From an uncultured Candidatus Berkelbacteria bacterium (lineage in GTDB: Bacteria > Patescibacteriota > UBA1384 > XYA2-FULL-43-10 > CAINNR01): a DNA stretch of 64,000 nucleotides. The stretch lies in the NCBI GenBank assembly GCA_903851235.1, contig CAINNR010000032.1:25-64024 (forward strand), read 5' to 3'. Below, in pieces: positions 34,664 through 47,679 of this stretch (positions are counted from its first letter, which is position 1; the number at the start of each line of letters is the position of its first letter). The notes beneath the pieces were generated by a model. The model was given only the letters and a program-made list of their open reading frames with translations, ran no database searches and had not been told where the DNA came from. The translations under genes and the position numbers were made by a program.

Positions 34664-34693
34664 TCAAAAAAAGACGGCCAGTGGTCGGCCGTC
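34664..34693 (-). terminator. Intrinsic terminator of the 34692-35453 gene.
   Basis: gacggccgaccactggccgtc followed by tttttttt on the minus strand. Confidence 0.6.
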
Positions 34694-35453
34694 ATCGGTT
34701 GATGATTTCTTGGTGAGGAATGCGTGATTCGGCGATCACCGCTCCGGTCATTGTCGTCTGATCGGTATTTTCTGCGATCAGAACTTCTGCACTTTGTTGT
34801 AATTGATCTGCAACCGAAAGGTCTTTGCCGATTCGGTCGTTTGAGCAGTGGAAAGTTTTTGCCCAGTCATCAGCTTGTTGCTGGAGTATGATCAGCTGAT
34901 TTTCCAAATGTTCCATTGTTTTTTGTGACCGTTGAATTTCTGTATCAATTGATGGAATTCTAGACATCAACAGAGAGTTTCTTGACCTGTCACAGACTTT
35001 TCGGTCAAGATTCAAGTTGCCAATTGCTTTTTTCAACTTTCTGATGGATTTTTCTGTCTCTCGGATTTGTTCCATTAGACTTCTGTCCATTGGGTTTTTA
35101 TATCTCTGATTCCACGAATGCAACTTCCACTGGAACAGTCGCCAGCAGATTCGCGGGCTGAAGCGGAGGAGTTGGCGAAACAGCGGAACAAGAACAAAGT
35201 CGTAGAGCACGATCTGAATCATTCCGGGAAGTAATATTAACCACATGAAAGTGATAGGTCCTGGGCCGGGATCAGCCGAAAAGTCTGCAAGTCCATTCTT
35301 GCCCCATGGACTCTCCCCCTCTTTGGTCTCATCATATCGAAAATACCATGCGGCAATTGTTGTAATCAGAGACCAAATACCCAGTACACACATCCACCAA
35401 CTCATCAACATCACCTCTCTTACTGAGATACTTGAACCACTAAATATTATCAC
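34692..35453 (-). CDS. Membrane-anchored coiled-coil protein, hypothetical (paralog A).
   Basis: It shares an 'ILLPGMIQIVLYDFVLVPLFRQLLRFSPRICWR' block and about 100 bp of near-identical DNA with the next gene. Confidence 0.55.
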   Translation of the reverse strand: MIIFSGSSISVREVMLMSWWMCVLGIWSLITTIAAWYFRYDETKEGESPWGKNGLADFSADPGPGPITFMWLILLPGMIQIVLYDFVLVPLFRQLLRFSPRICWRLFQWKLHSWNQRYKNPMDRSLMEQIRETEKSIRKLKKAIGNLNLDRKVCDRSRNSLLMSRIPSIDTEIQRSQKTMEHLENQLIILQQQADDWAKTFHCSNDRIGKDLSVADQLQQSAEVLIAENTDQTTMTGAVIAESRIPHQEIINR

Positions 35454-35542
35454 GATTTTATTTTTTTGTCAAGATTTTCATTCACGATAATTAATTACCA
35501 ATAAAAAAAAGACGGCCAGCTTCGGCCGTCATTTGATAGTTG

Positions 35543-36235
35543 CTAGTGTTGTTCACCGCAAACTTTCGCTCTTGCCGCCTTTGTGGCGGTAAGTTTGTCA
35601 TCGATTTCTCGTGCAACTTCATCTGATATTTCCAAGAGTTCGTCAGCATTCAAAACGTCGTTCATGATTAAATCGCTGGGCCGAAAAAGTTCGAGGTGTT
35701 CAAGTTTTGCCGCTTCAATTTTTTGTAATTGAAGCTGTTGATCGGCAATTCTCTGGCGAAGATGTTTAATATCAGCTTCAACTTTTTCTAGCAATGCCTT
35801 GCGGGGAGTCTTCAAGCCTTCCAGAATCGCTCGATCAACCATAAGTGCTTTGATCCTGCTCTCCATTTTTGTGATTAGAGACTGAATTGATCTGGTGCAC
35901 TCATCGAATGAATCGGTTGAAACCTTGTTTTTTGCTCTAACGCGCCGTCCACCACGCCAAAGCTGAAACTTCCGCCAGCAGATTCGTGGGCTGAAGCGGA
36001 GGAGTTGGCGAAACAGCGGAGCAAGAACAAAGTCGTACAGCGCGATCTGGATAATTCCAGGAAAGATTATTAGCCAAAGGAAGCCTAACAACACGTCATA
36101 ATCAGGTGAAAAATCTATAAGGCCGCCATTGCCCCATATATTGCCTTTCTCTCTGACCGAAATATGCCGAAGCCACCATGCGGCAGCTGTCGCAACCAGC
36201 AACCAAATGGCTAATCCTGGCATCCACCAGACCAT
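35543..36235 (-). CDS. Membrane-anchored coiled-coil protein, hypothetical (paralog B).
   Basis: 'IIFPGIIQIALYDFVLAPLFRQLLRFSPRICWR'. Its own terminator at 35503-35530 resembles the paralog A terminator. Confidence 0.55.
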   Translation of the reverse strand: MVWWMPGLAIWLLVATAAAWWLRHISVREKGNIWGNGGLIDFSPDYDVLLGFLWLIIFPGIIQIALYDFVLAPLFRQLLRFSPRICWRKFQLWRGGRRVRAKNKVSTDSFDECTRSIQSLITKMESRIKALMVDRAILEGLKTPRKALLEKVEADIKHLRQRIADQQLQLQKIEAAKLEHLELFRPSDLIMNDVLNADELLEISDEVAREIDDKLTATKAARAKVCGEQH

Positions 36236-36328
36236 TACTACATCACCTCTCTCACTGAGATACTTAAGCCACTAAATATTAGCACGATTTTATTTTCTCG
36301 TCAAGATTTCTTTATCAAATTCTTGAAT

Positions 36329-37237
36329 TTAAATTTTTTCAATCACCCGCATTTTGGCACTACGGGAACGGGGATTCTCTCTAACATCATCATCAGTCGC
36401 TATGAGAGGTTTTTTTGTGAGTACTTTAAACTCCTCCGGATGCGCGTTTTCCAAATTACGAAAAGTGTGTTTGACAATTCTGTCTTCAAGTGAGTGGAAG
36501 GAGATAATTATCAGTCGGCCATTTTTGTTCAACGATTCAACTGCTGCTGGGATAAACTGTTCCAAAACTTGAAGCTCATTATTAACCTCAATCCGCAAAG
36601 CTTGAAAAACTCGCGTCGCAAAGTGAATGCGCGAGCCGAAGCGGTATTTCGGCGGTGTCGCAGCTTTAATAATTTCAACCAGTTTGGCCGTTGTTTTAAT
36701 TGCTGTTTTTTTTCGCTCCTCTATTATCTTTTTGGCGATCTGTCGCGAGTATTTTTCCTCACCGAATTTATAAAAAATATCGGCCAGCTTTTTTTCATCA
36801 TAATAATTTACAATTTCACCGGCAGTTTCTTCGGCATTTTGGTTCATCCGCATATCAAGCGAAGCGTCGGATTGAAAGGAGAATCCTCGCTCGGGATTAT
36901 CAAGTTGATAGCTGGAAACGCCAAGATCAAGCAAAATACCGTCAATTTTGTCAATTTTTTTGCTCGCCAATATTTCCGCTAAATTTGAATAGTTGTCGTG
37001 AACAAAAATTATTTTATCAGCGATTTTTTTCAGATTTTTTTTGGCGGCAATAATCGCTTCCAAATCTTGGTCAATTCCGATTATTTGACATTTGAAATTA
37101 GAAATTTGACATTTTCGAAGCAACGCTTCGCTGTGTCCGCCGCCACCCAAAGTGCCATCGACAAAAATGCCATTATTTTTTAATGGCATATACTCCAAAA
37201 CCTTGTTTAGTAGTACCGGTTGGTGATTAAATTCCAT
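36329..37237 (-). CDS. rsmH: 16S rRNA (cytosine1402-N4)-methyltransferase RsmH (MraW).
   Basis: 'PVLLNKVLEYMPLKNNGIFVDGTLGGGGHSEALL' is the canonical RsmH N-terminus. Confidence 0.9.
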   Translation of the reverse strand: MEFNHQPVLLNKVLEYMPLKNNGIFVDGTLGGGGHSEALLRKCQISNFKCQIIGIDQDLEAIIAAKKNLKKIADKIIFVHDNYSNLAEILASKKIDKIDGILLDLGVSSYQLDNPERGFSFQSDASLDMRMNQNAEETAGEIVNYYDEKKLADIFYKFGEEKYSRQIAKKIIEERKKTAIKTTAKLVEIIKAATPPKYRFGSRIHFATRVFQALRIEVNNELQVLEQFIPAAVESLNKNGRLIIISFHSLEDRIVKHTFRNLENAHPEEFKVLTKKPLIATDDDVRENPRSRSAKMRVIEKI

Positions 37238-37337
37238 AGTTTTAAATTAGCAGAAAAAGCCGAGATTTGATAGTGGATGGACCGGCAGTGCAGAGACTTG
37301 AATTTATTAACCAAAAATGATAAAGTATTTGTGTTAC

Positions 37338-37413
37338 GGGGTCGTAGTGTAGTGGTTATCACGTCTCCCTGTCACGGAGAAGATCGCCGGTTCGAGTCCG
37401 GTCGACCCCGCCA
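37338..37413 (+). tRNA. tRNA-Asp (anticodon GTC). It marks the left boundary of the cassette array.
   Basis: Acceptor ggggtcg/cgacccc, anticodon stem-loop tctcc-ctGTCac-ggaga, T-arm ccggt-tcgagtc-cggt, discriminator g, CCA. A TTGAAT-17-TAAAGT promoter lies upstream. Confidence 0.85.
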
Positions 37414-37476
37414 TTAAAATTAGTCGCTATCAGAGCGTCTTTTTTTGTATCAGGCAGACCGGATGCAGAACTTTTG
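37411..37476 (+). repeat. Boundary element E0: the tRNA-Asp 3' end, its downstream hairpin, T-tract and the right inverted repeat. This is the template that every later boundary element copies.
   Basis: ccattaaaattagtcgctatcagagcgtctttttttgtatcaggcagaccggatgcagaacttttg. Confidence 0.75.
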
Positions 37477-37525
37477 TATTTCTGAATACTAATCAGGTTT
37501 CATTTTATTGCATTGATCTCTAAGT

Positions 37526-38245
37526 TTGGATATTATTGAGGTTATGATAGATGGAATAAAACAGAAATTACTAGATATAAGCCAACCTTGCCCAGAGCGA
37601 GACCGCGTTTTTGTTCTGAAATATTTGGGTACCAACAAAGAATATCTGAACATACCGGCGCCAGCCAGAGATAAAATTATTTCAAAGGTTATTGTCGAAA
37701 CTTCCGATCTTCCGCCAGAAAAGATTATCGAAATTCTAGATGAATTATTTAGTTCCGGGATTTATGACTACATAAATTTTGCGGGAAAATTTCTTTCAAA
37801 AAATAAAACCATTCGCAATTTTATCTCCCTTGATCAGCTTGAAAGTTGGATTGCGCAAACAAAGGGTTGGGCCGAGTGTGATAGTATATGTCAGTCTATG
37901 TTTGGCGGGGTTGAAGTATTAGACCGTTGGAAAGAATGGGCGAGAGCTATCAAAGAGTTTTCCAGTAGCGACAATATTCAAATTCGCAGAGCAAGTCTAG
38001 TTCTGCAAACTCGACCAGCCAGAGAAGTTACTGACTTAAATTTCAGACGGTTGGCATTTATAACCATTGAAAAATTGATGGATGAAAGGGATATTTTAAT
38101 TACTAAAGCAATATCCTGGCTCTTACGAGACCTTTCTATCAAAAACAAAACTGAAGTTAGAAAATTTTTGAAAACAAATCAATCAGTTCTTCCAGCGATT
38201 GCATACCGAGAAACAATGAAGAAGATTGAAACGGGGAAAAAGTAG
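37526..38245 (+). CDS. Cassette 1: DNA alkylation repair enzyme-like (AlkD/AlkC HEAT-like repeat family). Tentative.
   Basis: 239-aa all-helical ORF. Its length and the C-terminal 'ISWLLRDLS...REAMK'-like pattern fit pfam DNA_alkylation. Confidence 0.45.
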   Translation: MDIIEVMIDGIKQKLLDISQPCPERDRVFVLKYLGTNKEYLNIPAPARDKIISKVIVETSDLPPEKIIEILDELFSSGIYDYINFAGKFLSKNKTIRNFISLDQLESWIAQTKGWAECDSICQSMFGGVEVLDRWKEWARAIKEFSSSDNIQIRRASLVLQTRPAREVTDLNFRRLAFITIEKLMDERDILITKAISWLLRDLSIKNKTEVRKFLKTNQSVLPAIAYRETMKKIETGKK

Positions 38246-38273
38246 CGATAACAAAAAACGGCTAGCAATTGAT

Positions 38274-38370
38274 CAAAAAAGTTCTAACATCGTTCGCTAT
38301 TTCCCGCCAGCAAACCGAATGATGTTAGAACTATTCGGTTTAATCGCTCTAGAAGCGATTTTTTTGTTGT
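38274..38370 (+). repeat. Boundary element E1: perfect 11-bp inverted repeats, a tRNA-3' mimic and a terminator.
   Basis: caaaaaaGTTCTAACATC-gttcgctatttcccgcca-...GATGTTAGAAC, then aatcgctctagaagcgattttttt. Confidence 0.8.
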
Positions 38371-38426
38371 GCGCCAGGGCTGAAATAAACTAACTAAACA
38401 TAGAGTTTCAAACAGTCATCGACATA

Positions 38427-38455
38427 TTGACATTTATTAATTAATATGATATTAT
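38427..38455 (+). promoter_or_regulatory. Consensus promoter of cassette 2; leaderless mRNA.
   Basis: TTGACA, 17 nt, TATTAT, with the ATG at 38463 seven nt after the -10. Confidence 0.6.
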
Positions 38456-38462
38456 GCTCATA

Positions 38463-38723
38463 ATGACCACTCAGAAGGAGACTGACATGACACTGCTTGA
38501 GTTCGTGAAGATGTTGGGGACGATCATGATCCGTGCGATCTTTGACGTTGTCCGGCCTCTCTCGCCGATCATCGGCGCGTTGGCCTTGATTGGGTTCGTC
38601 GTCGAGATCGTCCGGCACCATAGTACATCGTGGGAGCTTGCGCTGTCAGCGTTAGCCCTTGGCGCCATGGCTTACCTGACGCGGCGGCCTGAGCTGCGCG
38701 GGTACACAATGTTCCCGAATTGA
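38463..38723 (+). CDS. Cassette 2: small GC-rich membrane protein, hypothetical.
   Basis: MTTQKETDMTLLEF..., two predicted TM helices. Terminator at 38782-38826. Confidence 0.5.
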   Translation: MTTQKETDMTLLEFVKMLGTIMIRAIFDVVRPLSPIIGALALIGFVVEIVRHHSTSWELALSALALGAMAYLTRRPELRGYTMFPN

Positions 38724-38830
38724 CCGCGCCCCCGCTAGGGCAGGTCACAAACCCATCCCCAATACTCTTCAGTTGCGGGGAAGGACCAGAGCAATCAAAA
38801 CATTGATTTTTCTGGTCCTTTTTTAAATCA

Positions 38831-38931
38831 CAATAGTTCTAACGTCATTCGCTATCTCCCGCCATTTAAATTAGTCGCTCTTATAGCGTCTATTTTTTGT
38901 TACGGCAGACCGAATGTAGAACTTTTTATTG
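38831..38931 (+). repeat. Boundary element E2.
   Basis: caatagttctaac...cgctatctcccgccattt...agtcgctcttatagcgtctattttttgttacggcagaccgaatgtagaacttttt. Confidence 0.8.
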
Positions 38932-38982
38932 AGTGTTAACTTTCGAATTAGAATTTTTAACGGTGATGTATCTGAAATCCAG

Positions 38983-39011
38983 TTGACAAACATATTAAAA
39001 GTTGATTATAT
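38983..39011 (+). promoter_or_regulatory. Consensus promoter of cassette 3; leaderless mRNA.
   Basis: TTGACA, 17 nt, TTATAT, with the ATG six nt downstream. Confidence 0.55.
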
Positions 39012-39017
39012 AAGCGT

Positions 39018-39710
39018 ATGCAAGAAAAAGTCTCCAAAATAAAAAAATATTACGACAATCCTGATCAATATCTGGCGGAACATAAGGATTTTTTTTCTAT
39101 CCATAATCCCGAAAAAGATGTGGATTTTTTAATAAAAGTATTGGAAATTGAAAAAAGCGATAATATTCTTGACATAACTTGCGGTCAGGGACGACACACG
39201 ACTGAACTAGCAAAAAGAGGTTATACAGTAAGTGGTGTTGATTTTTCTTCTTCTCTTATTGACGAAGCAAAACAAATAGCTATCGATGCTAATATTAAAT
39301 CACAGTATTATATCCAGAATATCGAGTCACTTAAGTTACCATCAAAGTTTGATATGGCATATTGGTTTTTCTCTGATTTTGCCAACATTGACCTTGCATC
39401 GGCAATAAAATCTATTTCTAATCAGCTCAATCCCGGCGCTAGAGTCCTATTCGATTCAGATAGTCTTTTCCGAATTGTAAGTCATTTGCAAAATAATCCG
39501 GACTCTCCATACAAATTTGACCCAAAGTTACTTCAGTTAATAGACAATTCTCTCGGTCTTAGCATCCCTTATCCAACTTTCCTTATGTGGCAAGATTGGT
39601 TGAACAAAAATGAACTTGAGATTATTAATGTTTGGGGAAATTACGATCTCTCATCTTATGATATTAAAAGTCCTCGTCTGATCATTTTAGCTAATAAAAA
39701 AGCTGCTTAA
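39018..39710 (+). CDS. Cassette 3: class I SAM-dependent methyltransferase.
   Basis: Motif I 'ILDITCGQGRHTTELAKRGYTVSGVDFS'. Confidence 0.75.
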   Translation: MQEKVSKIKKYYDNPDQYLAEHKDFFSIHNPEKDVDFLIKVLEIEKSDNILDITCGQGRHTTELAKRGYTVSGVDFSSSLIDEAKQIAIDANIKSQYYIQNIESLKLPSKFDMAYWFFSDFANIDLASAIKSISNQLNPGARVLFDSDSLFRIVSHLQNNPDSPYKFDPKLLQLIDNSLGLSIPYPTFLMWQDWLNKNELEIINVWGNYDLSSYDIKSPRLIILANKKAA

Positions 39711-39744
39711 GTCAGAATCGACCTAAACAGCTTGTAGTTCTCCG

Positions 39745-41175
39745 CTATGCCGAGGTGGCATGGGAATTGATCGTGTCATAGAGATTGTCGACCTTGCACT
39801 TGAAGAGGCCGGGGTCCTCTGTTAGTATCCACATCAGCTCAAGTACAGAGTCATGGATCTCCTCGCACTTGAAATGAGGCGAACGCAGGTCTCTCGTGGT
39901 CTGATAGTTCTCTCCTCGACAGTTGCCGGCACAGATATACCTGATATCGCAAGCCGCGCATTTTGGATTCATACTATCGATGTTCAGACTGCGAAGATCC
40001 GTCAGAATGGGGGATCCCTTCCAGATCTCAGCCAAACTATCGGTTTTCAGATTGCCCAGGCAGAAATCGGGGACCGCAGTATCGGCGCATGGGTACAGTG
40101 TGCCGTCCGGTTTAACGTAAACCGCTCGATTCGTACCGATTCCACAGCCGAAGCTTTTGACGCCTCCTGCGATTCCCATCACTTGGTTTGCGAAGGTCGA
40201 GTACATCATCAACTGCTGAAGTCGCTGATCATCTCGTATTGCTTCGAAAACCTTCCGGTAGAAATCCGCCAAAGGGACAGCAACGAGTTGTTGCTTCGTT
40301 TCGGCGCTGTTGCCTCGGCCTACATTCATCATGTTTAAACAGTTAAGGCCTTGGACTCCAAGAGAATCGACCAACTTGAGTGTTGGTCGGACCTCATCGA
40401 TATTGCCTGCGTGAATAAACATGTTGACGGCAACTGAGATCCCTGCGTCGCACAGTGCCTTGATGTTGTTGACTGTTGTAGTGAATGTTCCCTCTCCACG
40501 GATGTATTCGTGGCTCTCAGCCCGACATCCGTCAAGGGAAATCGACATTTTCAGCCGGGGATATTTCGCCAGTTGTTTGATATCTGCTGGCGCCAACAGA
40601 GTCGCATTGGTGTTCACTTGAGCGAAATAGCCATGGTTGTGAACATATTCAATCAGATCCATGGCATCGGGGCGGGTAAACAGCTCACCGCCGGTTAGGG
40701 CAACGCGCGATATGCCGTTTTCCCAGGGCATACTCGAAAGTTGATCGATAACTGCTTTGATTTCGACAGAAGTCATCTCGCCGGGGATCTTCTCTTTGGC
40801 CATGGCATAACACATTGCGCATTCCATGTTGCAGAGTTGAGTTGTGGCGATAACCAAGACATTTTCGACTTCATTGACTTGGAAATCCGGCTTATTCTCT
40901 TCGACATCAACCTTCTCACCATCTACTACCAGCACTCCAGCGGAGTGCAGCAGATCGATAGTTTCAGCGACGATGTCGCCAGCCTCCTCTGCTGAGAGTC
41001 CCAATTGGGTTCTGATCTTAGTGACAGCCACATCAGAGTTTCCACAAGCCAACGACTCAAGGATGAGGGCAATCTCCGCCGTTGCAGAGAACCAGTAGGG
41101 TGCTGAGGGAAAGATCACGACTGCTGATTCTTCCCTGAAATAGACCGATGGTTTTTCGGTGAATGCCAACTGCAT
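39745..41175 (-). CDS. Cassette 4: radical SAM enzyme with a C-terminal SPASM domain and a ~110-aa N-terminal extension (a possible RiPP recognition element). Likely a peptide-modifying maturase. GC-rich.
   Basis: 'CNMECAMC' (CxxxCxxC) and C-terminal 'CAACDIRYICAGNCRGENY'. RBS GGGAGA lies before ATG at 41175. Confidence 0.8.
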   Translation of the reverse strand: MQLAFTEKPSVYFREESAVVIFPSAPYWFSATAEIALILESLACGNSDVAVTKIRTQLGLSAEEAGDIVAETIDLLHSAGVLVVDGEKVDVEENKPDFQVNEVENVLVIATTQLCNMECAMCYAMAKEKIPGEMTSVEIKAVIDQLSSMPWENGISRVALTGGELFTRPDAMDLIEYVHNHGYFAQVNTNATLLAPADIKQLAKYPRLKMSISLDGCRAESHEYIRGEGTFTTTVNNIKALCDAGISVAVNMFIHAGNIDEVRPTLKLVDSLGVQGLNCLNMMNVGRGNSAETKQQLVAVPLADFYRKVFEAIRDDQRLQQLMMYSTFANQVMGIAGGVKSFGCGIGTNRAVYVKPDGTLYPCADTAVPDFCLGNLKTDSLAEIWKGSPILTDLRSLNIDSMNPKCAACDIRYICAGNCRGENYQTTRDLRSPHFKCEEIHDSVLELMWILTEDPGLFKCKVDNLYDTINSHATSA

Positions 41176-41198
41176 TTCGGTCTCCCTTCAAAAAAGAT

Positions 41199-41226
41199 CA
41201 GTGAGGCGCGCTCGCGCGCCTCACTG
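41199..41226 (-). terminator. Attenuator/terminator hairpin between the precursor peptide gene and the maturase.
   Basis: Perfect 12-bp stem cagtgaggcgcg-cgag-cgcgcctcactg followed by a U-tract on the minus strand. Confidence 0.6.
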
Positions 41227-41239
41227 TTGTTACGTGGAG

Positions 41240-41332
41240 CTACTGGCCCCGGTAGTACATCGTCCCTTGTGACTCCTTAGTCAAGACGACGATACGACGA
41301 TTGCCACGGTTCAAAATCCGAAACTTCCGCAT
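41240..41332 (-). CDS. 30-aa candidate RiPP precursor peptide (MRKFRILNRGNRRIVVLTKESQGTMYYRGQ). It is not in the supplied ORF track.
   Basis: A strong SD (AGGAGGagcgtcATG) and a TTGACA promoter on the minus strand at ~41408. It lies directly upstream of the radical-SAM/SPASM gene and is separated from it by an attenuator hairpin. Confidence 0.55.
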   Translation of the reverse strand: MRKFRILNRGNRRIVVLTKESQGTMYYRGQ

Positions 41333-41478
41333 GACGCTCCTCCTGTCAGATGGTGTAAGCTGTCGAAACAGCTTCACTATTATTATTAACATACTTTTTT
41401 TACTTTTGTCAACAGCATCGAGTAAATCTGATAACTTTATGAGGATATTTTTATTAATTTTTATGCTAAAATTTGATT

Positions 41479-42153
41479 ATGAATTGGAAAATTTATAAAA
41501 CACAACATTATACTTTTCACTACTTCTCAGGAACTTTGGCAGAAAAGGAAATTGAGAAAATAGCGGATGAACAGGAAGCGTTTTATCGTCATATTTTGTC
41601 GTAACTAAATTTGAAAAATGAGCGTACCATAAACTATTTTTTATATCCAGCGAATCAACTAAAGGGTGAAATAATGGGCGATGATGGTAATGGCAATACT
41701 AATCGAGAAAAATTTGAAGTCTACGCTGTCTACAATGAAAATATAAAATGTATTGGTGCGCATGAAGATACTCATCTCCTATCTCTTCCATTGGGATTGG
41801 CAACTAAACTATTTCGAGAAGGCCTGGCAGAGTTTATGAGTAAAGAATGACATGGAAAAACTCATGATTTTTGGGCTAAAAAATTTCTGAGTGAAAAAAA
41901 GATTCCTGGACTAGCGAAAATTTTAGATGATAAAGAGGGGGATAAAATCAGCGACTTAATTTCTTATCCTTGCGCCGGCTCTTTTTACATATTTTTAATA
42001 TCTAAAATTGGTAAAGGTATTTTTTTAAAACTTTATGGAGCCCTAGACCGAAATATAAATGTTGAAATAAACTTAGTAACAATTAAAGATATCACAAGTA
42101 AATCTTTAGACCAGTGGCAAAAAGAATGGGCAGAAAAAGTGTTGTACCAGTAA
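41479..42153 (+). pseudogene. Cassette 5: decayed gene. One continuous frame is interrupted by TAA (41602-41604) and TGA (41848-41850).
   Basis: My translation reads MNWKIYKTQHYTFHYFSGTLAEKEIEKIADEQEAFYRHILS*LNLKNERTINYF...AEFMSKE*HGKTHDFWAKKF...KVLYQ* in a single frame. No boundary element separates it from cassette 4. Confidence 0.5.
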
Positions 42154-42200
42154 AATATCTGCCTCTTGTTCATCAACTAGTCCAACCTTAGGGAGCCATA

Positions 42201-42297
42201 CAAAAAGTTCTAACTTCCCCCGCTGTGTTCCGCCATTGAAAAAGTCTCTCTGGAAGAGATTATTTTTGTATACGGCAGACTGGATATAGAACTTTTG
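42201..42297 (+). repeat. Boundary element E5.
   Basis: caaaaagttctaacttcccccgctgtgttccgccattgaaaaagtctctctggaagagattatttttgtatacggcagactggatatagaacttttg. Confidence 0.8.
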
Positions 42298-42414
42298 TTT
42301 TTAAACGTAAAACTTCGGATTGGATTTGAAACGAAATGTATGGGCTATTGTCCAAGAGGTCGTCATCATGTACAGATGTTTGACAAAACTGTTGATTGCC
42401 AATAGACTTAGACT

Positions 42415-42756
42415 ATGAAAACAATCGAAGACAAAATAAGTATCAAAGATTTGCAGGAGATGGCAGAAAAGATGTTCGGCAATTTGGTTAAAGCGGTAAT
42501 TGACATAGAGAAAGAGGCGATGGTCGTTGACGCCGAGCTTTATTCAGACGAGGAAGCGGTTCTAATTGAAAACGGATCAAAACAAAAAGATCTTTGGGGA
42601 ATAAATATCTATCCAAATTTACCCAAAGCCGACCAAATTGAATTTGATTCAATGATTAATTTGCGACCAAAACAGAACAACAGAAGCCGGAGTGTTGATG
42701 ATCCAAAAATCAGAGAAATAATACTAAAAATTTGTGATAAATTAATCAAACAATGA
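42415..42756 (+). CDS. Cassette 6a: hypothetical protein, first gene of a two-gene cassette; leaderless.
   Basis: 113 aa. TTGACA-17-TAGACT promoter with the ATG six nt after the -10. Confidence 0.5.
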   Translation: MKTIEDKISIKDLQEMAEKMFGNLVKAVIDIEKEAMVVDAELYSDEEAVLIENGSKQKDLWGINIYPNLPKADQIEFDSMINLRPKQNNRSRSVDDPKIREIILKICDKLIKQ

Positions 42757-43082
42757 CATATGAACATCAAAATTTGGCCGAAGGCAAGTGGAATAAAATT
42801 CCATTTTTTGAGCAGATGGCTAATATCGGAAGTGAGGTTTTTCGCACAATCAGTTGGAAGAAAAAAAACATTGATTATTCAAATAAAGCTTTTGACAGAA
42901 CTCTCGAACTACTGGATATGACGATTGAAGATTCTAAAAATCGAGGACGACTAAAAGAATTAGTTCGTTTGCGTGAAGTCCTGACCGATTATTTTGTCTT
43001 TGACAATGAGTACAAATCAAATGATGAATTATGGCAGAAGTATTTTTACGCGTTCAATTATGTCGCTAGAATAAATTGTTAG
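42753..43082 (+). CDS. Cassette 6b: hypothetical protein, start overlapping 6a (ATGA).
   Basis: 109 aa, translationally coupled to 6a. Confidence 0.5.
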   Translation: MTYEHQNLAEGKWNKIPFFEQMANIGSEVFRTISWKKKNIDYSNKAFDRTLELLDMTIEDSKNRGRLKELVRLREVLTDYFVFDNEYKSNDELWQKYFYAFNYVARINC

Positions 43083-43083
43083 A

Positions 43084-43150
43084 CAAAAAGTTCTAAATTT
43101 AATCGGCGCTCTAAATCTCCGCCAATGAAAAAGTTAGTCCAGTGCTAGTT
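43084..43150 (+). repeat. Degenerate boundary element E6 (left half only).
   Basis: aaaaagttctaaatt...cgctctaaatctccgccaatgaaaaagttagtccagtgctagttttttt. Confidence 0.5.
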
Positions 43151-43216
43151 TTTTTGCGTACTAAAATAGTATATTCTAATTATCTTTTAGCAAATTGTCC
43201 CTGTCCAAAGTGGTAT

Positions 43217-43888
43217 TGTAGATATATGAAATTATTTTTATCACTAGCTCTGATTGCTTTGCTAACAATAGCTGTCTATTTTTGTTTAACCAAAAAACCT
43301 AGCGATAAAAAATACAATAATATATCCAGAAAAAAAGCTATTATGATATCCGCAACAATATGCATTATTCTGGTTGGAACACTGGCTTATTTAATGTATA
43401 AATCGGCGACAGCTCCAGATATGCAATGTACTACAGTTCACACAACTTCACTGATGCCACCAAAGTCTCTGGCTAGTGCTATGGATTATTACCTTCAGGG
43501 CAATTATGATTATGAAACCGGAAATTGTCAGAAAGCGATTGTTAATTTTAATGCCTCAATTCAACTTGATCCGAATTATCCACAAGCATATAACAACCGG
43601 GCATACACTTTTATGCGAATGCAAAATTATAAAGACGCATTATCAGATCTAGACAAAGCCATTGCCCTCAATCCAAATTATATCAACGCCTTAATGAACA
43701 GGGGCGACATTCACAATTATTACTATGCGATTGATCGCAAAAGCTCGACTGAGGACTACGAAAAAGTAATTTCCCTGGGCGGTGAAAAAGATACAAGCGT
43801 GTGTGGACATCTACTTTTGGCGAAACATGATGGCTGGAATTTGGGCACTCTTTTAGCTCTTCACCAAACTTTGTACAGTTGCAATTAA
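43217..43888 (+). CDS. Cassette 7: membrane-anchored TPR-repeat protein.
   Basis: N-terminal TM (MKLFLSLALIALLTIAVYF), then tandem TPRs (AIVNFNASIQLDPNYPQAYNNRAYTFMRMQNYKDALSDLDKAIALNPNYINALMNRG). Confidence 0.65.
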   Translation, partial: CRYMKLFLSLALIALLTIAVYFCLTKKPSDKKYNNISRKKAIMISATICIILVGTLAYLMYKSATAPDMQCTTVHTTSLMPPKSLASAMDYYLQGNYDYETGNCQKAIVNFNASIQLDPNYPQAYNNRAYTFMRMQNYKDALSDLDKAIALNPNYINALMNRGDIHNYYYAIDRKSSTEDYEKVISLGGEKDTSVCGHLLLAKHDGWNLGTLLALHQTLYSCN

Positions 43889-43911
43889 CTTGTGCACTCA
43901 TCATAAAATAA

Positions 43912-44060
43912 ACTGGTTCTGACATCATCCGCTATACCTCGCCATTTTGCCCGGGTCTAGCGGAGGGCGTTAGAACCGGAGGAATAATCGCTTTCAGAGC
44001 GGTTATTTTTGTTTTTACAAGTACAAAATTATTTCACAAAATAGATGTTAGAACTAAAAA
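43912..44060 (+). repeat. Boundary element E7: an extended form with two right-IR copies.
   Basis: ggttctgacatcatccgctatacctcgccatttt...gcgttagaacc...aatcgctttcagagcggttattttt...atagatgttagaact. Confidence 0.7.
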
Positions 44061-44094
44061 AGTGTTTCCGAGCTCTTGAATCATTGCGCGGCTG

Positions 44095-44123
44095 TTGACA
44101 TGTGAATGTATTTATGATAAACT
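44095..44123 (+). promoter_or_regulatory. Promoter of cassette 8.
   Basis: TTGACA, 17 nt, TAAACT. Confidence 0.45.
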
Positions 44124-44161
44124 AATTGAAGTTTTCACCAACCCAGAAAGAGTGATGCCAC

Positions 44162-44503
44162 ATGATGTTGCTCCAGATTGTCGGCATGCCAAAGGACGCA
44201 CCCGAACTGGATTGCCTGAGGAAGAGGATAGCTGAGACAATGGCCCCTGTTCTTGAACAGGATCTGCTGGTTACCTTCGTGTGCGACATGGAACCAGTTG
44301 AGGTATGCGCTGGACTGTTGTTCAGACTGGAGCCATTTGGTGAAATGACACAAAAGCTCGAGCAAGATGCTGCCGGTCTGTCGGAGCCTCTTGGTGAGCT
44401 TATCCAGGGGTATGCCAAGCAACATGGACATCAGTTCTGTTGTCCGTTCGAGATCACATATGTTCATCCCAAGACTCAGTATGTTTTGGGGGTGAATGGG
44501 TGA
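44162..44503 (+). CDS. Cassette 8: GC-rich hypothetical protein (a weak MIF/tautomerase-like N-terminal pattern).
   Basis: 113 aa. GC content clearly above the host. A terminator gcccc-ttgatc-ggggc-ctttttt follows. Confidence 0.45.
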   Translation: MMLLQIVGMPKDAPELDCLRKRIAETMAPVLEQDLLVTFVCDMEPVEVCAGLLFRLEPFGEMTQKLEQDAAGLSEPLGELIQGYAKQHGHQFCCPFEITYVHPKTQYVLGVNG

Positions 44504-44574
44504 CCAGTCACCAATTCTGCTTCTTTCACACTCGCCCCTTGATCGGGGCCTTTTTTAATTCAAATTTCCATTAC

Positions 44575-44672
44575 CAGAGTTCTATCATTGTTCGCTATTT
44601 CTCGCCATTGAAAATAGTCGCTTCCAGAGCGTCTGTTTTGCATCCGGCAGACCGGACGTAGAGCTTTTTTTA
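44575..44672 (+). repeat. Boundary element E8.
   Basis: cagagttctatcattgttcgctatttctcgccattgaaaatagtcgcttccagagcgtctgttttgcatccggcagaccggacgtagagcttttttt. Confidence 0.8.
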
Positions 44673-44709
44673 AATGTAAAGCTTCGAATTAGAATTTTTC
44701 ACAGCAGTA

Positions 44710-44738
44710 TTGACTTTTGAGTCTGAATATGATATTAT
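44710..44738 (+). promoter_or_regulatory. Promoter of cassette 9, followed by a ~185-nt structured leader.
   Basis: TTGACT, 17 nt, TATTAT. The leader contains several hairpins and a strong SD (aaGGAGGcgtttaggATG). Confidence 0.5.
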
Positions 44739-44929
44739 ATAGTAATCTCAGAATAAGCTGATGGGTATCGAATTTCTGGCGTAAATTAAGACAAATATAG
44801 GCACGAGAGTCTTTAAAACTTGTTTTTTAGAGATTCTCCCGCCTGTATAGGCGGCTATCACATAGCTGGGGTACTTTCATCCTCTACCCCTGAAGCCTAG
44901 AGCTTAAAGCTACAAAGGAGGCGTTTAGG

Positions 44930-45460
44930 ATGAACGCCAGCAAAGTGATTAGAATGCAGTTGACCAAAAGAAGGCTTCCGGCCGTGTGGGAGCGCGGCGG
45001 TTACACTGGCATCAGTATTGACAGTGAGCCAGTGGGTATTGGGATCGTCTGGGCTAACCCGGATGGTATGCCCTATCGCCCATATTTCATTCAGGACACC
45101 GAACCGAACGACCAGCAGGCATTGGTTCCTGTCGAGAACGGGAGCTGGATGGTCGTTGCGAGACAGTGGCATCCTGGTAGATTCAACTATGAGGTCTGCC
45201 AGGTTACCGATGTTCGCACCGATCCAGACTCGTACGGCTTGTCTTTGAGTGAAGTGTTTCAGATGACCGATGGTGAGCCAGACTATCAGTGGCGTCATGA
45301 ATGGCTCAGCTGTTGGTCTCAACAGAAGTCGCACGGCCACCCTCAATCCGTGATCTCAGCCGTACCCATCACACTGAAGGCGGCTATCGACGCCGCCCTG
45401 GCCAAATGCCAGTGCCCGGGTTGCAGGGAAGCACACTATGTGCTGCCTCGCAAGAAGTAG
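44930..45460 (+). CDS. Cassette 9: GC-rich hypothetical protein.
   Basis: 176 aa with a strong SD and no family recognised. Confidence 0.55.
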   Translation: MNASKVIRMQLTKRRLPAVWERGGYTGISIDSEPVGIGIVWANPDGMPYRPYFIQDTEPNDQQALVPVENGSWMVVARQWHPGRFNYEVCQVTDVRTDPDSYGLSLSEVFQMTDGEPDYQWRHEWLSCWSQQKSHGHPQSVISAVPITLKAAIDAALAKCQCPGCREAHYVLPRKK

Positions 45461-45498
45461 CAACAACAAGGAGGACGGACATCAGTTGTTCGTCTTCC

Positions 45499-45549
45499 CC
45501 CTCAACACATTAAGTGTTCTGATGAGTCGTTGAAATTACGACGAAAGGG
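45499..45549 (+). ncRNA. Hammerhead ribozyme (type III, open helix III), copy 1.
   Basis: CCCU-C|AACAC-auuaa-GUGUU-CUGAUGA-G-UCG-uugaaauua-CGA-C-GAAA-GGG. All core nucleotides are present. Helix I is a 5-bp hairpin, helix II is 4 bp closed by the conserved G10.1-C11.1 pair, and helix III is CCCU/AGGG. The predicted cleavage is after C at 45503. Confidence 0.75.
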
Positions 45550-45554
45550 ATAAA

Positions 45555-45653
45555 CAAAATAGTTCTAACTCCCTTCGCTATGCTCCGCCATTAAAAATAG
45601 TCGCTCTAGAAGCGATTATTTTTCTATGTGATAGACAGGATGTAAAACTTTTG
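45555..45653 (+). repeat. Boundary element E9.
   Basis: caaaatagttctaactcccttcgctatgctccgccattaaaaatagtcgctctagaagcgattatttttctatgtgatagacaggatgtaaaacttttg. Confidence 0.8.
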
Positions 45654-45685
45654 TATTCTTAAGCAATTAAAATATAATGTAACTA

Positions 45686-45714
45686 TTGACATTTTATAAC
45701 TTTCTTGCTATAAC
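45686..45714 (+). promoter_or_regulatory. Promoter of cassette 10.
   Basis: aactaTTGACA, 17 nt, TATAAC. An SD (AGGGAGG) then precedes the GTG start. Confidence 0.5.
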
Positions 45715-45750
45715 TATTATACATTCTGAGAATACAAGGGAGGTCATCAC

Positions 45751-46077
45751 GTGACCAGTCAGGAAATACGAGATGCATTGACCGGCGTCGTCGCGGGCAC
45801 CAAGCTACGCCTTACCTTCAACGCTGGGAGTGGCAAGAAGGGCTTTCTCGATGGTGAGACCAAGGCGGCAGTCTGCTACTTCGTAATGATGAAGGACGCG
45901 AACATCATCTTTCCGGACGAGATGGACTGGGCCGTGATGTACGCCGTCGGGTTGTCAGGGTATTGGGATCACGATTCGAACCGCATTGTCGAGGTTCTGA
46001 TCCCAGAGGGTTTCAATCTCGACTGGTTCTCCCAGCGTCTCGAAGGCGGGTTGGAGAAGCTCGAAGTCATCGGATGA
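45751..46077 (+). CDS. Cassette 10: GC-rich hypothetical protein.
   Basis: 108 aa, GTG start. The terminator caccacctagc...ggctggtggtttttgtttt (46104-46140) belongs to the same family as the one after cassette 16. Confidence 0.5.
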   Translation: MTSQEIRDALTGVVAGTKLRLTFNAGSGKKGFLDGETKAAVCYFVMMKDANIIFPDEMDWAVMYAVGLSGYWDHDSNRIVEVLIPEGFNLDWFSQRLEGGLEKLEVIG

Positions 46078-46160
46078 GTTACTCCGACGACAGGTGTAAA
46101 GATCACCACCTAGCTGTAACAGGCTGGTGGTTTTTGTTTTAGACAGCGAAATTCTTGAAA

Positions 46161-46232
46161 CAAAATGTTCCAACTTCCTCTGCTGTCTACTGCCAATAAA
46201 TTAGTCTCTGATAGAGAGTCTTTTTTTGTGTA
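46161..46232 (+). repeat. Degenerate boundary element E10.
   Basis: aaatgttccaacttcctctgctgtctactgccaataaattagtctctgatagagagtctttttttgtgtact. Confidence 0.5.
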
Positions 46233-46283
46233 CTATTGGTTCCACTTGGTCTATAAATCGACTTTGTATGGTAGAATGAAGCC

Positions 46284-46745
46284 ATGAGAATGATAATTAT
46301 ATATCAATCATTTCACCACAAGAACACAGAAAAAGTGGTAAATGCAGTAGCCCCAATTCTTAATTGTGAAGCAATCCCGCTCTCAAAAGCGAAACCTGAA
46401 ATATTAGCCGATTATGACGTTATAGGTTTTGCCAGCGGAGTTTATTATGCAAAGCCGCATGTTGGATTCGAGAAGCTAATTGCCAAAAACAACTTTCAAG
46501 GGAAAATGTGTTTTATCATCGCTACAAGCGGTGGACCTGATACTTTCTATAATAAATTCCATGACAATTTTAGAAAAACTTTTACAGACGCTGGATTTGA
46601 GATAATCGACTTTTTTCAATGCCTCGGTTTTGATACCTATCCTGCGATTTCAAAGCCTTTTGGTGGTTTTGCCAAAGGACACCCCAATAAAGACGACCTT
46701 GAAACGGCGAGATTATGGGCAAAAAAACTAATTGACAAGATATAG
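46284..46745 (+). CDS. Cassette 11: flavodoxin-like fold protein (flavodoxin/NAD(P)H-FMN reductase-like); leaderless.
   Basis: 'MRMIIIYQSFHHKNTEKVVNAVA...DVIGFASGVYYAKP'. A -10 TAGAAT sits six nt before the ATG. Confidence 0.6.
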   Translation: MRMIIIYQSFHHKNTEKVVNAVAPILNCEAIPLSKAKPEILADYDVIGFASGVYYAKPHVGFEKLIAKNNFQGKMCFIIATSGGPDTFYNKFHDNFRKTFTDAGFEIIDFFQCLGFDTYPAISKPFGGFAKGHPNKDDLETARLWAKKLIDKI

Positions 46746-46837
46746 AGCTGCAACTTATATCAGGACTACGGAATTGTTTTGAAATCAAATTAATCAGAAC
46801 GTTCAAAGAAGGTCTTGGCTCCATATTGTTGATAATC

Positions 46838-46905
46838 CAGTTCTAACATTGTTTGCTGTTCCCCGTCAACGAAAACAGTCGCTACCAGAGCGACTGTTTT
46901 TAATT
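46838..46905 (+). repeat. Boundary element E11 (left IR, mimic, perfect 7-bp terminator hairpin).
   Basis: ccagttctaacattgtttgctgttccccgtcaacgaaaacAGTCGCTaccagAGCGACTgtttttaatt. Confidence 0.7.
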
Positions 46906-46956
46906 TAAGCCGGGAAATTTTTACTAAAAAACGCAAAAGATCTTGCCACTTTACTT

Positions 46957-47328
46957 CTACTTCTTCGCCTTTGACTGGTTGTTGCTTATGGCTGCGCGAA
47001 CAAGAGCCGCAATCTTTCCTTCTTGTACCTGATCACTTTCAGAAAAATCAATAGCCCGCCACTTATTACCAGCCAGTCCGGCGTTGAAGAGTTTGTCAGT
47101 ATCACTAATTGCCGCACCGTCCGGAAAAACAAGCTTCACTTTATTTTTAAAAATATTTCCGACACAAATAATCCCGCCCAACGACCAGATTGGTGACCCC
47201 ATCCATTTCCAGTCTTCAATAATTTTAGGGTCAACAGTGAGAATAATCTTGCGAAGTTTAGCCAGTGTGGCGCCGCGCCAGTCGTGATTCTTTGCGATCA
47301 AATTGTCAATTTCTTCACTTGGATTCAT
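46957..47328 (-). CDS. Cassette 12 (reverse orientation): DUF1801 (YdhG-like) domain protein.
   Basis: The start is set at the Met preceded by GGAGGcggcc (MNPSEEIDNLIAKNHDW...). The track's 47370 start is 14 codons further up. Size and 'W..GSPIW' pattern fit DUF1801. Confidence 0.55.
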   Translation of the reverse strand: MNPSEEIDNLIAKNHDWRGATLAKLRKIILTVDPKIIEDWKWMGSPIWSLGGIICVGNIFKNKVKLVFPDGAAISDTDKLFNAGLAGNKWRAIDFSESDQVQEGKIAALVRAAISNNQSKAKK

Positions 47329-47638: not shown

Positions 47639-47679
47639 TTTTCGTACAAGGTTGTTAATACCGTCTTCGGAGGCACAAG

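Follow-up and report, generated by a model that had tools for sequence, protein, structure and literature searches.

The cassette array in the 64,000-nucleotide stretch analysed here (the window) appears to hold two coexisting designs, AT-rich cassettes arranged in the manner of leaderless genes and GC-rich cassettes led by Shine-Dalgarno (SD) sites, with cassette 2 in the latter; we assign this reading a probability of roughly 0.7. In the AT-rich cassettes, a -10 element, usually of the extended form TGnTAnnnT, ends 6 nt (7 nt in cassette 1) before the ATG, so that RNA polymerase is expected to begin transcription at the A of the start codon. Such an mRNA would lack both a 5' UTR and an SD site, and for its translation the ribosome and the initiator tRNA would bind directly to the 5'-terminal AUG. 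The GC-rich ORFan cassettes would be expressed from a shared promoter module, ACTATTGACA-17-TAnnnT, through leaders 24 to 185 nt long with a strong GGAGG-type SD site; for cassette 2, which would follow this scheme, the predicted leader is ~24 nt and the start codon would be ATG 38487. Additional, leadered mRNAs might arise where transcription runs on from a cassette upstream.

Architecture of the array

The source lineage was read as probably Patescibacteria (CPR) with low GC; the contig was found again in ENA sample ERZ18624736, and relatives were found in groundwater assemblies from Hainich H52. The array adjoins rsmH and starts directly downstream of the tRNA-Asp(GTC) gene that follows it (37338-37413, identified by ARAGORN and Rfam; all features are on the forward strand except rsmH). 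Its units are short, co-oriented gene cassettes. Each ends in an imperfect-palindrome repeat with an intrinsic-terminator hairpin within it, and each cassette was found to be preceded by a repeat containing a terminator-like hairpin followed by a T run. Since each cassette is closed by a terminator-containing repeat, each needs its own sigma-70-type promoter, and nearly every cassette was found to carry one after the preceding terminator hairpin, either as TTGACA-17-TAnnnT or as an extended -10. With each cassette thus insulated, expression should not depend on array position, unlike in Pc-driven integrons.

Folding of the repeats gave imperfect hairpins 55-95 nt long, with z-scores between -1.5 and -6.5, and the first arm of the repeats mimics the 3' end of the tRNA. 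The 5' box TTCTAAC recurs (AGTTCTAAC, 8 occurrences versus 0.33 expected), while at the 3' end most repeats have the box G(T/C)AGAAC and not GTTRRRY, GTTAGAA being present only in the copies at 38281-38331 and 44047-44055. A pattern for the second arm, CAGACYGRATRYARAACTTTT, had no match in viral contigs and nine in metagenome contigs, none of which was accompanied by the rest of the repeat or by tRNA-Asp; we read these nine as chance matches. At gathering thresholds, Rfam reported only tRNAs in the window; hammerheads appeared only in its E-value mode, below the gathering score.

Leaderless-style cassettes

An initial annotation of this DNA had proposed leaderless transcription of cassettes 2, 3, 6 and 11. 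All of the motifs that it quoted were recovered at their positions, and the leaderless arrangement was borne out for cassettes 3, 6 and 11 by motif spacing, the lack of an SD site and start codons confirmed by homolog length.

Cassette 6 (42380-42417) is, in our best reading of the sequence, the best-supported candidate. It encodes a DUF5674 protein (42415-42756) and an overlapping 109-aa protein (42753-43082) and has TTGACA (42380-42385), 17 nt, TAGACT (42403-42408), 6 nt and ATG 42415. The start was supported by Pfam, with DUF5674 profile positions 3-109 aligned to residues 4-110, and by the 5058 DUF5674 homologs, which are mostly 113 aa long with 100% coverage. The arrangement TTGACA-17-TA[GAC]ACT-6-ATG was kept in five diverged DUF5674 cassettes on five distinct contigs with differing upstream contexts, where the hexamers were identical at 44/48 positions (92%) versus 45/92 (49%) for the spacer plus discriminator, with no indels.

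Cassette 11 (46269-46286), encoding a flavodoxin-like protein (46284-46745), has the extended -10 TGgTAGAAT (46269-46277) 6 nt before ATG 46284. Pfam flavodoxin profiles begin at residues 4-5, and among the best 150 of 928 representative homologs (E<=0.001), most align from their own first residue to that of cassette 11, one of them a 153-aa protein with 76% identity. Both cassettes 6 and 11 are best read as transcribed without a leader.

In cassette 3 (38983-39020), encoding a SAM methyltransferase (39018-39710), TTGACA (38983-38988) is followed by 17 nt including TGa, TTATAT (39006-39011), 6 nt and ATG 39018, before which the ORF has no other start codon; its homologs are 226-239 aa long with full coverage. 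In a comparison with a homolog in another locus (L096, 70% aa identity), the -35-to-ATG segment was identical at 32 of 35 nt and the coding sequences were 74% identical; homology began at the -35 hexamer, and the sequences upstream of it were unrelated. The promoter had been called near-consensus, and it does have a perfect -35 and, one base before the -10 hexamer, a TG. The -10 itself is not near-consensus because TTATAT agrees with TATAAT at only 3/6 positions and has no A at position 2. Leaderless transcription is again the best reading, somewhat less firm than for cassettes 6 and 11.

The same geometry was found in four cassettes beyond those initially listed, and leaderless transcription is our best reading of these as well. 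Cassette 1 (37508-37546), a DNA alkylation repair gene (37544-38245) with an ORF GC of 0.37 and a Pfam DNA_alkylation match over residues 24-228, has TTGCAT, 17 nt, TATTAT (37531-37536), 7 nt and ATG 37544. Cassette 5 (41464-41481) has TGcTAAAAT 6 nt before ATG 41479, opening a frame of 225 codons (41479-42153) that is interrupted by two in-frame stops and is probably a decaying gene. Cassette 7 (43211-43228), which by Pfam encodes a TPR protein (43226-43888) with an N-terminal hydrophobic segment, has TGgTATTGT 6 nt before ATG 43226, and a methyltransferase-like gene identified by Pfam (61577-62098; element at 61562-61579) has TGcTACAAT 6 nt before ATG 61577. In the 18 nt before each of the starts at 37544, 39018, 41479, 42415, 43226, 46284 and 61577, none of GGAG, GAGG and AGGA was present.

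Host genes with the same geometry

Three host genes outside the initial list also showed this arrangement. The core gene rsmH (36329-37237, reverse strand; element at 37235-37252), which lies outside the array, has TGcTAATTT 6 nt before its ATG at 37237, and relatives align from residue 1 of its N-terminus MEFNHQPVLL. Another core gene, ruvC (5364-5855; element at 5352-5366), has TAATTT 6 nt before ATG 5364 and no SD site, with Pfam RuvC profile positions 1-147 aligned to residues 3-156. The third, a 68-aa ORF with two hydrophobic segments in the host region (17953-17970), has TGcTAGAAT 6 nt before ATG 17968. Since these three genes and the array of a relative (locus L090) share the design, the leaderless style would be native to the lineage. 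Other core genes of this genome carry strong GGAGG sites, and the ribosome is therefore SD-competent. A scan of genome contigs with RsmH found no close relative whose array could be compared, the best match being 51% identical and from unrelated phyla. Exact look-ups returned nothing on record for the window RsmH or for P0002, the DUF5674 protein as called on the contig itself.

Statistics of the spacing

The -10 ended 6 nt before the ATG in cassettes 3 (with its weak hexamer), 5, 6, 7 and 11, the 61577 gene, rsmH, ruvC and the 17968 ORF, and 7 nt before it in cassettes 1 and 2, where the extra nucleotide could mean a 1-nt leader. We counted TGNTANNNT-N6-ATG seven times in the window versus 2.44 expected, a number reached in 1 of 100 shuffles, and six of the seven matches fell on the first ATG of an ORF. 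In L090 there were four matches versus 0.56 expected, all four at called gene starts. Varying the spacer from N0 to N15 gave matches at gene starts essentially at N6 alone, where they made up 6/7 of the matches in the window and 4/4 of those in L090. Altogether, 10 of 11 extended-motif matches were at gene starts, compared with ~68 of 1810 ATGs being starts by a start-codon list that was partly curated by eye and in which the starts 41479 and 43226 were set after their motif had been noticed. N6 matches resembling ORF starts numbered eight in 108 kb of loci of this lineage and eight in 1.25 Mb of other phyla.

The hexamer by itself was far less specific: AT-rich DNA raises the TAnnnT background, and only 9 of the 42 TAnnnT-N6-ATG sites in the window were at starts, with 20 to 42 TAnnnT-Nn-ATG sites per spacer value. 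The overall excess in a promoter scan was moderate (47 versus 29.5 +/- 5.6).

SD-led cassettes and the start of cassette 2

The GGAGG-type sites initially described for the genes starting at 44930, 45751, 47680, 49049 and 63672 were all confirmed, and the leaders predicted for these genes are ~30 to 185 nt long. Cassette 9 (44710-44932), a GC-rich ORFan (44930-45460) that represents this class, has TTGACT, 17 nt, TATTAT (ending at 44738), a predicted leader of ~185 nt, AAGGAGG and ATG 44930; its promoter and the first ~55 nt of its leader are conserved with L090 positions 7240-7330, while the proteins are unrelated. Cassette 10 (45686-45753), also a GC-rich ORFan, has TTGACA, 17 nt, TATAAC, a predicted leader of ~30 nt, GGGAGG and GTG 45751, and cassette 13 (47610-47682), a GC-rich small membrane ORF, has TTGACA, 17 nt, TATAGT, a predicted leader of ~35 nt, GGAGG and ATG 47680. 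The corresponding elements of the GC-rich ORFan in cassette 15 (48951-49051) are TTGACA, 17 nt, TATATT, a predicted leader of ~63 nt, TAGGAG and ATG 49049, and those of the last GC-rich cassette (63586-63674) are TTGACA, 17 nt, TGaTACGGT, a predicted leader of ~51 nt, AAGGGAGG and ATG 63672.

The promoter and starts of cassette 2 span 38427-38489, and its ORF ends at 38723. TTGACA (38427-38432), 17 nt and TGaTATTAT (hexamer 38450-38455) are followed after 7 nt by ATG 38463, and an additional in-frame ATG (38454) lies inside the -10, both as initially described. The accompanying claim that there is no room for an SD site holds for ATG 38463 but not for the in-frame ATG 38487, which had gone unmentioned and is preceded at 6 nt by AAGGAG (38475-38480). 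We consider a leader of ~24 nt and SD-led translation from ATG 38487 most likely, and cassette 2 proved the weakest of the four cases proposed as leaderless.

Transcription of cassette 2 from 38462/38463 with translation at a 5'-terminal AUG 38463, possibly besides 38487, seems unlikely to us, though it is the strongest of the competing explanations. Its promoter is the best in the array by the promoter scan, matching the consensus at 11/12 positions plus TG, ATG 38463 is in the frame of the ORF 7 nt past the -10, and a 5'-terminal AUG is generally enough for leaderless initiation. Against this, beyond the strong SD site before ATG 38487, the ORF GC is 0.58 and GC3 is 0.76, as in all SD-led cassettes; the other GC-rich cassettes are all SD-led and the leaderless-style ORFs are all at or below 0.37. 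Moreover, the 7-nt spacing differs from the 6 nt found in 10/10 extended -10 cases, and the long-leader cassettes 9 and L090 7240 have promoters of the same family. The deposited annotation also starts the gene at 38487; this 78-aa call on the source contig was the sole database relative in a homolog search and, being cassette 2 itself, it cannot decide the start by homology. Both ATGs could be used.

Alternative origins of the leaderless-style arrangement

We also considered that the AT-rich genes are translated from leadered transcripts, produced by read-through or from further-upstream start sites, by SD-independent initiation on an unstructured A/U-rich leader, with the -10-like hexamers being incidental or minor promoters. 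The co-orientation of the cassettes, the strong promoters upstream and the weakness of some terminator hairpins, which have few G-C pairs, would allow this, and non-SD initiation is known elsewhere, for example in GeneMarkS-2 group B (PMC6028130). Against it are the very sharp peak at exactly 6 nt together with the TGn extension, the exact -35/17/-10/6/ATG geometry kept among the diverged DUF5674 cassettes, and the strong GGAGG sites on core genes, which point to an SD-competent ribosome; we regard it as rather improbable. A functionless chance product of AT-rich intergenic DNA, which the commonness of TAnnnT at every spacer value and the moderate promoter-scan excess might suggest, is effectively refuted by the shuffles of the window and L090, the concentration of extended-motif matches on gene starts, the lack of a comparable signal at other spacer lengths and the conservation across genomes.

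Composition and origin of the cassettes

ORF GC separated the two styles fully, with 0.32-0.37 for the leaderless-style ORFs versus 0.39-0.58 for the SD-led ones (Mann-Whitney U=0, p=8e-6), the GC-rich ORFan cassettes being at 0.50-0.58. The AT-rich leaderless-style cassettes (1, 3, 5, 6, 7, 11 and 61577) encode Patescibacteria-typical proteins. The full GC split agrees with the initial suggestion that the two styles came from different donors, but host rsmH and ruvC and the array of the relative are also leaderless-style, and the GC-rich ORFans have AT-rich promoter, leader and 3' modules in common despite unrelated proteins. The signals of these ORFans thus look like a shared cassette chassis, not an inheritance from separate donors. 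No GC-rich ORFan had a match in PHROGs, and a phage donor for them is therefore unsupported. How such cassettes originate can be approached from this clean division, in which the AT-rich leaderless-style cassettes belong to known families and the GC-rich ORFan cassettes are built on the shared chassis.

Comparison with known systems

Large chromosomal integron arrays such as that of Vibrio sp. DAT722, where transcription of many cassettes begins at promoters within the array and not at a single Pc (PMC2945992), resemble this array in their short, co-oriented single-gene units separated by imperfect-palindrome repeats. In contrast to them, this array adjoins tRNA-Asp and its repeats copy the tRNA 3' end in their first arm. 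Integron attC sites have the boxes R'' (RYYYAAC) and R' (GTTRRRY), of which R' is not conserved here, and integron cassettes are mostly promoterless and share a common Pc, whereas essentially every cassette here has its own promoter and terminator. Neither a Phage_integrase nor another recombinase Pfam match was found among ~60 ORFs scanned across the 64-kb window, and the gene list of the 20-kb L090 locus contained no IntI or tyrosine recombinase; an integrase elsewhere in the genome is possible. With no intI found, the R' box not conserved and promoters on the cassettes, a canonical integron was rejected. Our literature search found nothing pertinent on attC or integrons in Patescibacteria within the searchable literature.

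Tentatively, the array may be an undescribed integron-like cassette system of Patescibacteria, distant from its integrase and accreting at tRNA-Asp. Its imperfect palindromes of ~90 nt, with the tRNA-copying first arm and the enclosed terminator, would be recombination sites, and its cassettes would be autonomous, each with its own leaderless or SD-led promoter and terminator and, in the GC-rich ORFan ones, a 3' hammerhead ribozyme. Leaderless expression would then be lineage-wide and systematically mis-annotated by standard gene callers.

The leaderless style of the AT-rich cassettes, as read from the DNA, is a well-supported and unsurprising instance of a known expression style. A Pribnow box 6-8 nt from the start of first-in-operon genes is the computational signature of bacterial leaderless genes, and the GeneMarkS-2 'group C' genomes of Actinobacteria and Deinococcus-Thermus combine leaderless and SD-led genes in one genome (PMC6028130). 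The cassettes here share with the group C leaderless genes, known from dRNA-seq in M. tuberculosis and D. deserti, a -10 ending 6 nt before the ATG and the lack of an SD site, and differ from them in a -10 mostly of the extended TGn type and in a low-GC lineage that is probably Patescibacteria (CPR). Lambda cI transcribed from PRM and Tn1721 tetR are classic, experimentally proven single leaderless genes, both isolated regulatory genes. As in these, the promoter abuts the AUG with no SD site and transcription is predicted to start on the A; unlike them, the design recurs over many cassette and core genes.

The searchable literature yielded no report of leaderless mRNAs in CPR/Patescibacteria. 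The present results extend the leaderless-gene signature to a probable member of this lineage, where core genes (rsmH and ruvC) and mobile cassettes both use it. In the deposited annotation of this contig and of a relative, the DUF5674 gene is cut to 94 aa, starting at an internal ATG behind an SD-like AGGAG, compared with 113 aa for the family, and start-codon errors of this kind are likely common in such MAGs.

Promoters placed close to the start codon

The interval 38427-38463 holds the promoter of c2, the second unit of a gene array that begins directly downstream of a tRNA-Asp(GTC) gene (37338-37413). The genes of the array are short and for the most part point the same way, and rsmH (36329-37237, minus strand), which is not an integrase, lies on the opposite flank of the tRNA. 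The initial annotation had read cassettes c2, c3, c6 and c11 as leaderless genes with near-consensus promoters, and all of the motifs it quoted were present where it placed them. In c6, TTGACA (42380-42385) is followed after 17 nt by TAGACT (42403-42408) and after a further 6 nt by ATG 42415, and in c11, TGgTAGAAT (46269-46277) lies 6 nt ahead of ATG 46284. The c3 promoter has a perfect -35 element (TTGACA, 38983-38988) and, 17 nt downstream, TTATAT (39006-39011), with a TG one base ahead of this hexamer and ATG 39018 6 nt after it. The description as near-consensus fits the -35 element but not TTATAT, which matches TATAAT at 3 of 6 positions without the conserved A at position 2; c3 is for this reason absent from the promoter-scanner list.

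The upstream regions of all ORFs were read for a -10 element ending 6-7 nt before the first ATG without a Shine-Dalgarno (SD) site. This added c1, a DNA alkylation repair gene (TTGCAT-17-TATTAT-7-ATG 37544), c5 (TGcTAAAAT-6-ATG 41479), c7, encoding a TPR protein (TGgTATTGT-6-ATG 43226), and a methyltransferase-like gene (TGcTACAAT-6-ATG 61577). Outside the array, the arrangement was found at the core genes rsmH (minus strand, TGcTAATTT-6-ATG 37237) and ruvC (TAATTT-6-ATG 5364, with the Pfam RuvC profile starting from residue 3) and at an ORF for a 68-aa protein that has two hydrophobic segments (TGcTAGAAT-6-ATG 17968). In published work, bacterial leaderless genes are recognised by a Pribnow box 6-8 nt from the start (PMC6028130), and with the -10 hexamer at -12 to -7, a 6-nt gap would place +1 on the A of ATG. 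We estimate a probability of roughly 0.7-0.8, for each of c1, c5, c6, c7, c11, the gene at 61577, rsmH and ruvC, that the mRNA has no leader or a leader of at most 1 nt, and for c3 the odds of this appear about even.

The c5 frame (41479-42153) carries an in-frame TAA at codon 42 and a TGA at codon 124, and another cassette frame (62957-63229) a TAA at codon 19, with the promoter present and the rest intact in both. These are probably decaying cassettes, or else the stops are possibly sequencing errors.

Excess over chance

The pattern TGNTANNNT-N6-ATG, N6 being the 6 nt between the -10 element and ATG, had 7 matches in the window; dinucleotide-preserving shuffles gave 2.44 ± 1.44, and 1 of 100 shuffles reached the observed count. 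Six of the seven matches fell on the first ATG of an ORF, where gene starts account for only ~68 of the 1810 ATGs in the window. With a 7-nt spacer there were 4 matches against 2.0 expected, and the sole one at a candidate start was ATG 38463 of c2. On L090, a 105.8-kb JGI contig of a relative in which a tRNA-Asp is likewise followed by a cassette array, 4 N6 matches were found against 0.56 expected, all at called gene starts (8459, Exo_endo_phos; 9385, NUDIX; 13305; and 16386, GDSL lipase). When spacers from N0 to N15 were scanned, gene-start matches were confined essentially to N6 (6/7 in the window, 4/4 in L090), and the start-located count of the looser TAnnnT motif was also highest there (9 and 5, respectively). 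Over 66 start codons, from a list partly curated by eye, TAnnnT peaked at the 6-nt spacing with 8 occurrences against a background of ~2.3 per offset.

A promoter scan of 37-51 kb returned 47 sites against 29.5 ± 5.6 expected, and the TTGACA-17 sites scoring 10-11/12 were all on the plus strand, the majority sitting at a cassette 5' end. ORF-start-like N6 matches numbered 8 in 108 kb of the lineage's loci and likewise 8 in rsmH loci of other phyla totalling 1.25 Mb, a density ~11-fold higher in the lineage.

Conservation in relatives

L090, reached through its annotated DUF5674 protein (P0012), has in common with the window the DUF5674 cassette (c6) and a hammerhead motif that is identical by eye. 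The comparison of DUF5674 cassettes covered five distinct copies (window, L090, L091/L092, L093 and L094; CDS nucleotide identity 77-82%), and TTGACA-17-TA[G/A/C]ACT-6-ATG was present in all five with no indel. Relative to the window copy, the two hexamers were identical at 44 of 48 positions and the spacer and discriminator at 45 of 92, while the sequence upstream of the -35 element was unrelated. Such a pattern would be expected under selection for both the promoter and its exact spacing from the AUG. For c3 and its homolog on L096 (70% aa and 74% CDS nucleotide identity), the segment from -35 to ATG was identical at 32 of 35 positions and that upstream of -35 at 15 of 60, which is unrelated; the conserved unit therefore starts at the promoter. 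A more distant c3 homolog (L097, 59%) differs in having an SD-like AAAGGA.

Start codons and annotation

In c6, Pfam DUF5674 profile positions 3-109 align to residues 4-110, and most of the best matches listed among its 5058 homologs are 113 aa long with 100% query coverage. The deposited DUF5674 calls of the source contig (P0002) and of L090 (P0012) are 94 aa each, starting at an internal ATG (42472) behind AGGAG, in genes that span 42415-42756 in the window and 9944-10285 in L090 and belong to a family with a length of 113 aa. The 94-aa call is the error expected from an SD-seeking gene caller on a leaderless gene; such errors are likely systematic at leaderless genes in MAGs of this kind. 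The finding is useful for annotation. The c3 start, 39018, is the first start codon of its ORF, and its homologs are 226-239 aa long with full coverage. In c11, flavodoxin profiles start at residues 4-5, and among the best 150 representative homologs listed, out of 928 with E ≤ 0.001, most alignments pair the two first residues; one such homolog is a 153-aa protein with 76% identity.

The flagged promoter of c2

The c2 motifs cited as evidence of a leaderless gene are in place (TTGACA 38427-38432, 17 nt, TATTAT 38450-38455, 7 nt, ATG 38463), but an in-frame ATG at 38487, preceded at 6-nt spacing by AAGGAG (38475-38480), had been missed. The ORF composition (GC 0.58, GC3 0.76) is that of the SD-led class, and the promoter, TTGACAtttattaattaatatgaTATTAT, belongs to one family with those of c9 and of the L090 cassette at 7240. 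Homology does not decide the start, since the contig's own 78-aa call, with its start at 38487, is the sole relative in the databases. The more likely reading is an SD-led start at this ATG from a predicted leader of ~24 nt, and a leaderless mRNA, or a leader of at most 1 nt, is unlikely for c2.

Two cassette classes

Leaders with GGAGG-type sites had been described for GC-rich cassettes, and such sites were indeed found at 44930 (AAGGAGG, predicted leader ~185 nt), 45751 (GTG start, GGGAGG, ~30 nt), 47680 (GGAGG, ~35 nt), 49049 (TAGGAG, ~63 nt) and 63672 (AAGGGAGG, ~51 nt). ORF GC separated the classes completely (leaderless-style, n = 7, 0.32-0.37; SD-led, n = 16, 0.39-0.58; Mann-Whitney U = 0, p = 8e-6; host core median 0.43). 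AT-rich cassettes code for recognisable families (DNA_alkylation, SAM methyltransferase, DUF5674, TPR and flavodoxin-like), and the GC-rich class had no Pfam or PHROG match except for c4 (39745-41175, minus strand), a radical SAM/SPASM gene.

Non-coding modules are common to unrelated GC-rich ORFs. They include a promoter module (ACTATTGACA-17-TAnnnT, repeat family D13), a stretch of 47 nt covering promoter and 5' end (48133-48179 and 62885-62931, 94% identical, D17), and a promoter with a ~55-nt hairpin-forming leader common to c9 and an L090 cassette with unrelated proteins. At their 3' ends, GC-rich cassettes carry a hammerhead-like motif or a shared terminator. This suggests that a common non-coding chassis underlies the GC-rich ORFan cassettes. 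The proposal that two expression styles reflect cassettes from different donors is supported by the composition split, but the leaderless style belongs to the host lineage itself rather than having been imported, and the GC-rich signals look like a common cassette chassis rather than each donor's own.

The c9 module lies at 44710-44795 and its L090 counterpart at 7240-7330, and one of the shared promoter/5'-leader modules holds a conserved hairpin (CCAGAAT...ATTCTGG-like). Type III hammerhead-like motifs (CUGAUGAG...CGAAA core) were found at 45496-45552, 47964-48020 and 48760-48816 (40.6, 36.1 and 32.4 bits, all under the 48.5 that Rfam sets as gathering score). Each lies behind a GC-rich ORFan, in the interval from its stop codon to the first repeat arm, and the relative's array holds a copy (L090 ~8217-8270) that by eye matches the one at 47964-48020. 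A 62-nt 3' module with a terminator-like hairpin (CACCACCTAGC...GGCTGGTGGTTTTTGTTTTA; 46104-46165 and 49297-49358, 79% identical) trails two different GC-rich ORFs, c10 and c15.

Array layout and relation to known systems

The array units are set apart by a three-part composite repeat of ~90 nt, an imperfect palindrome that forms each junction of the array (regions 37338-50650, 57850-57900 and 62140-63545). Its first arm, AGTTCTAAC...CGCTAT..CCGCCA, resembles the tRNA 3' end as a diverged copy (AGTTCTAAC occurs 8 times against 0.33 expected) and is followed by a terminator hairpin with a T run (TAGTCGCTCTAGAAGCGATTATTTTT) and a second arm (GGCAGACCGGATGTAGAAC), which in the single-stranded repeat pairs with the first arm around the hairpin. 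We found no recombinase domain in the ~60 ORFs scanned across the window; "cassette" is therefore used descriptively and does not imply that the array is an established member of the integron family. The array looks like mini-elements accreted in tandem at a tRNA with attC-like sites, anchored at tRNA-Asp rather than at an integrase gene. Names borne by homologs of the cassette proteins include Patescibacteria group, Parcubacteria, Magasanikbacteria and Nealsonbacteria.

Promoters inside cassettes are known from large chromosomal integrons (PMC2945992). Leaderless genes with a -10 element near the start are a familiar feature of Actinobacteria and Deinococcus-Thermus and are found at low frequency in other groups (PMC6028130); the genes described here share the -10 to start distance of these published genes and are known from sequence alone. 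A literature search of incomplete coverage returned nothing on leaderless mRNAs in CPR/Patescibacteria and nothing on an array of this type. The leaderless finding is sound and of modest surprise, and the array itself is more unusual.

In L090 (6376-6720), a second, interrupted tRNA-Asp-like copy lies upstream of tRNA-Asp, with the 25-nt 5' segment duplicated at 6376-6400 and 6524-6548, and the tRNA 3' end recurs downstream as a direct repeat (GTCGACCCCGCCA, ~6707-6719); these look like footprints of integration at this tRNA. Within the array of the window, an inverted GC-rich unit (39745-41412, minus strand) has a TTGACA-17-TTAATA promoter, a GGAGGAG SD site and a 30-aa ORF (41332-41240) followed by the radical SAM/SPASM enzyme (41175-39745), and has the look of a small RiPP-type precursor paired with its maturase. 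A tandem duplication of ~830 nt (34692-36310) holds two paralogous minus-strand genes with no Pfam match (34692-35453 and 35543-36235), the upstream regions of which share 86-91% identity (repeat families D12 and D14).
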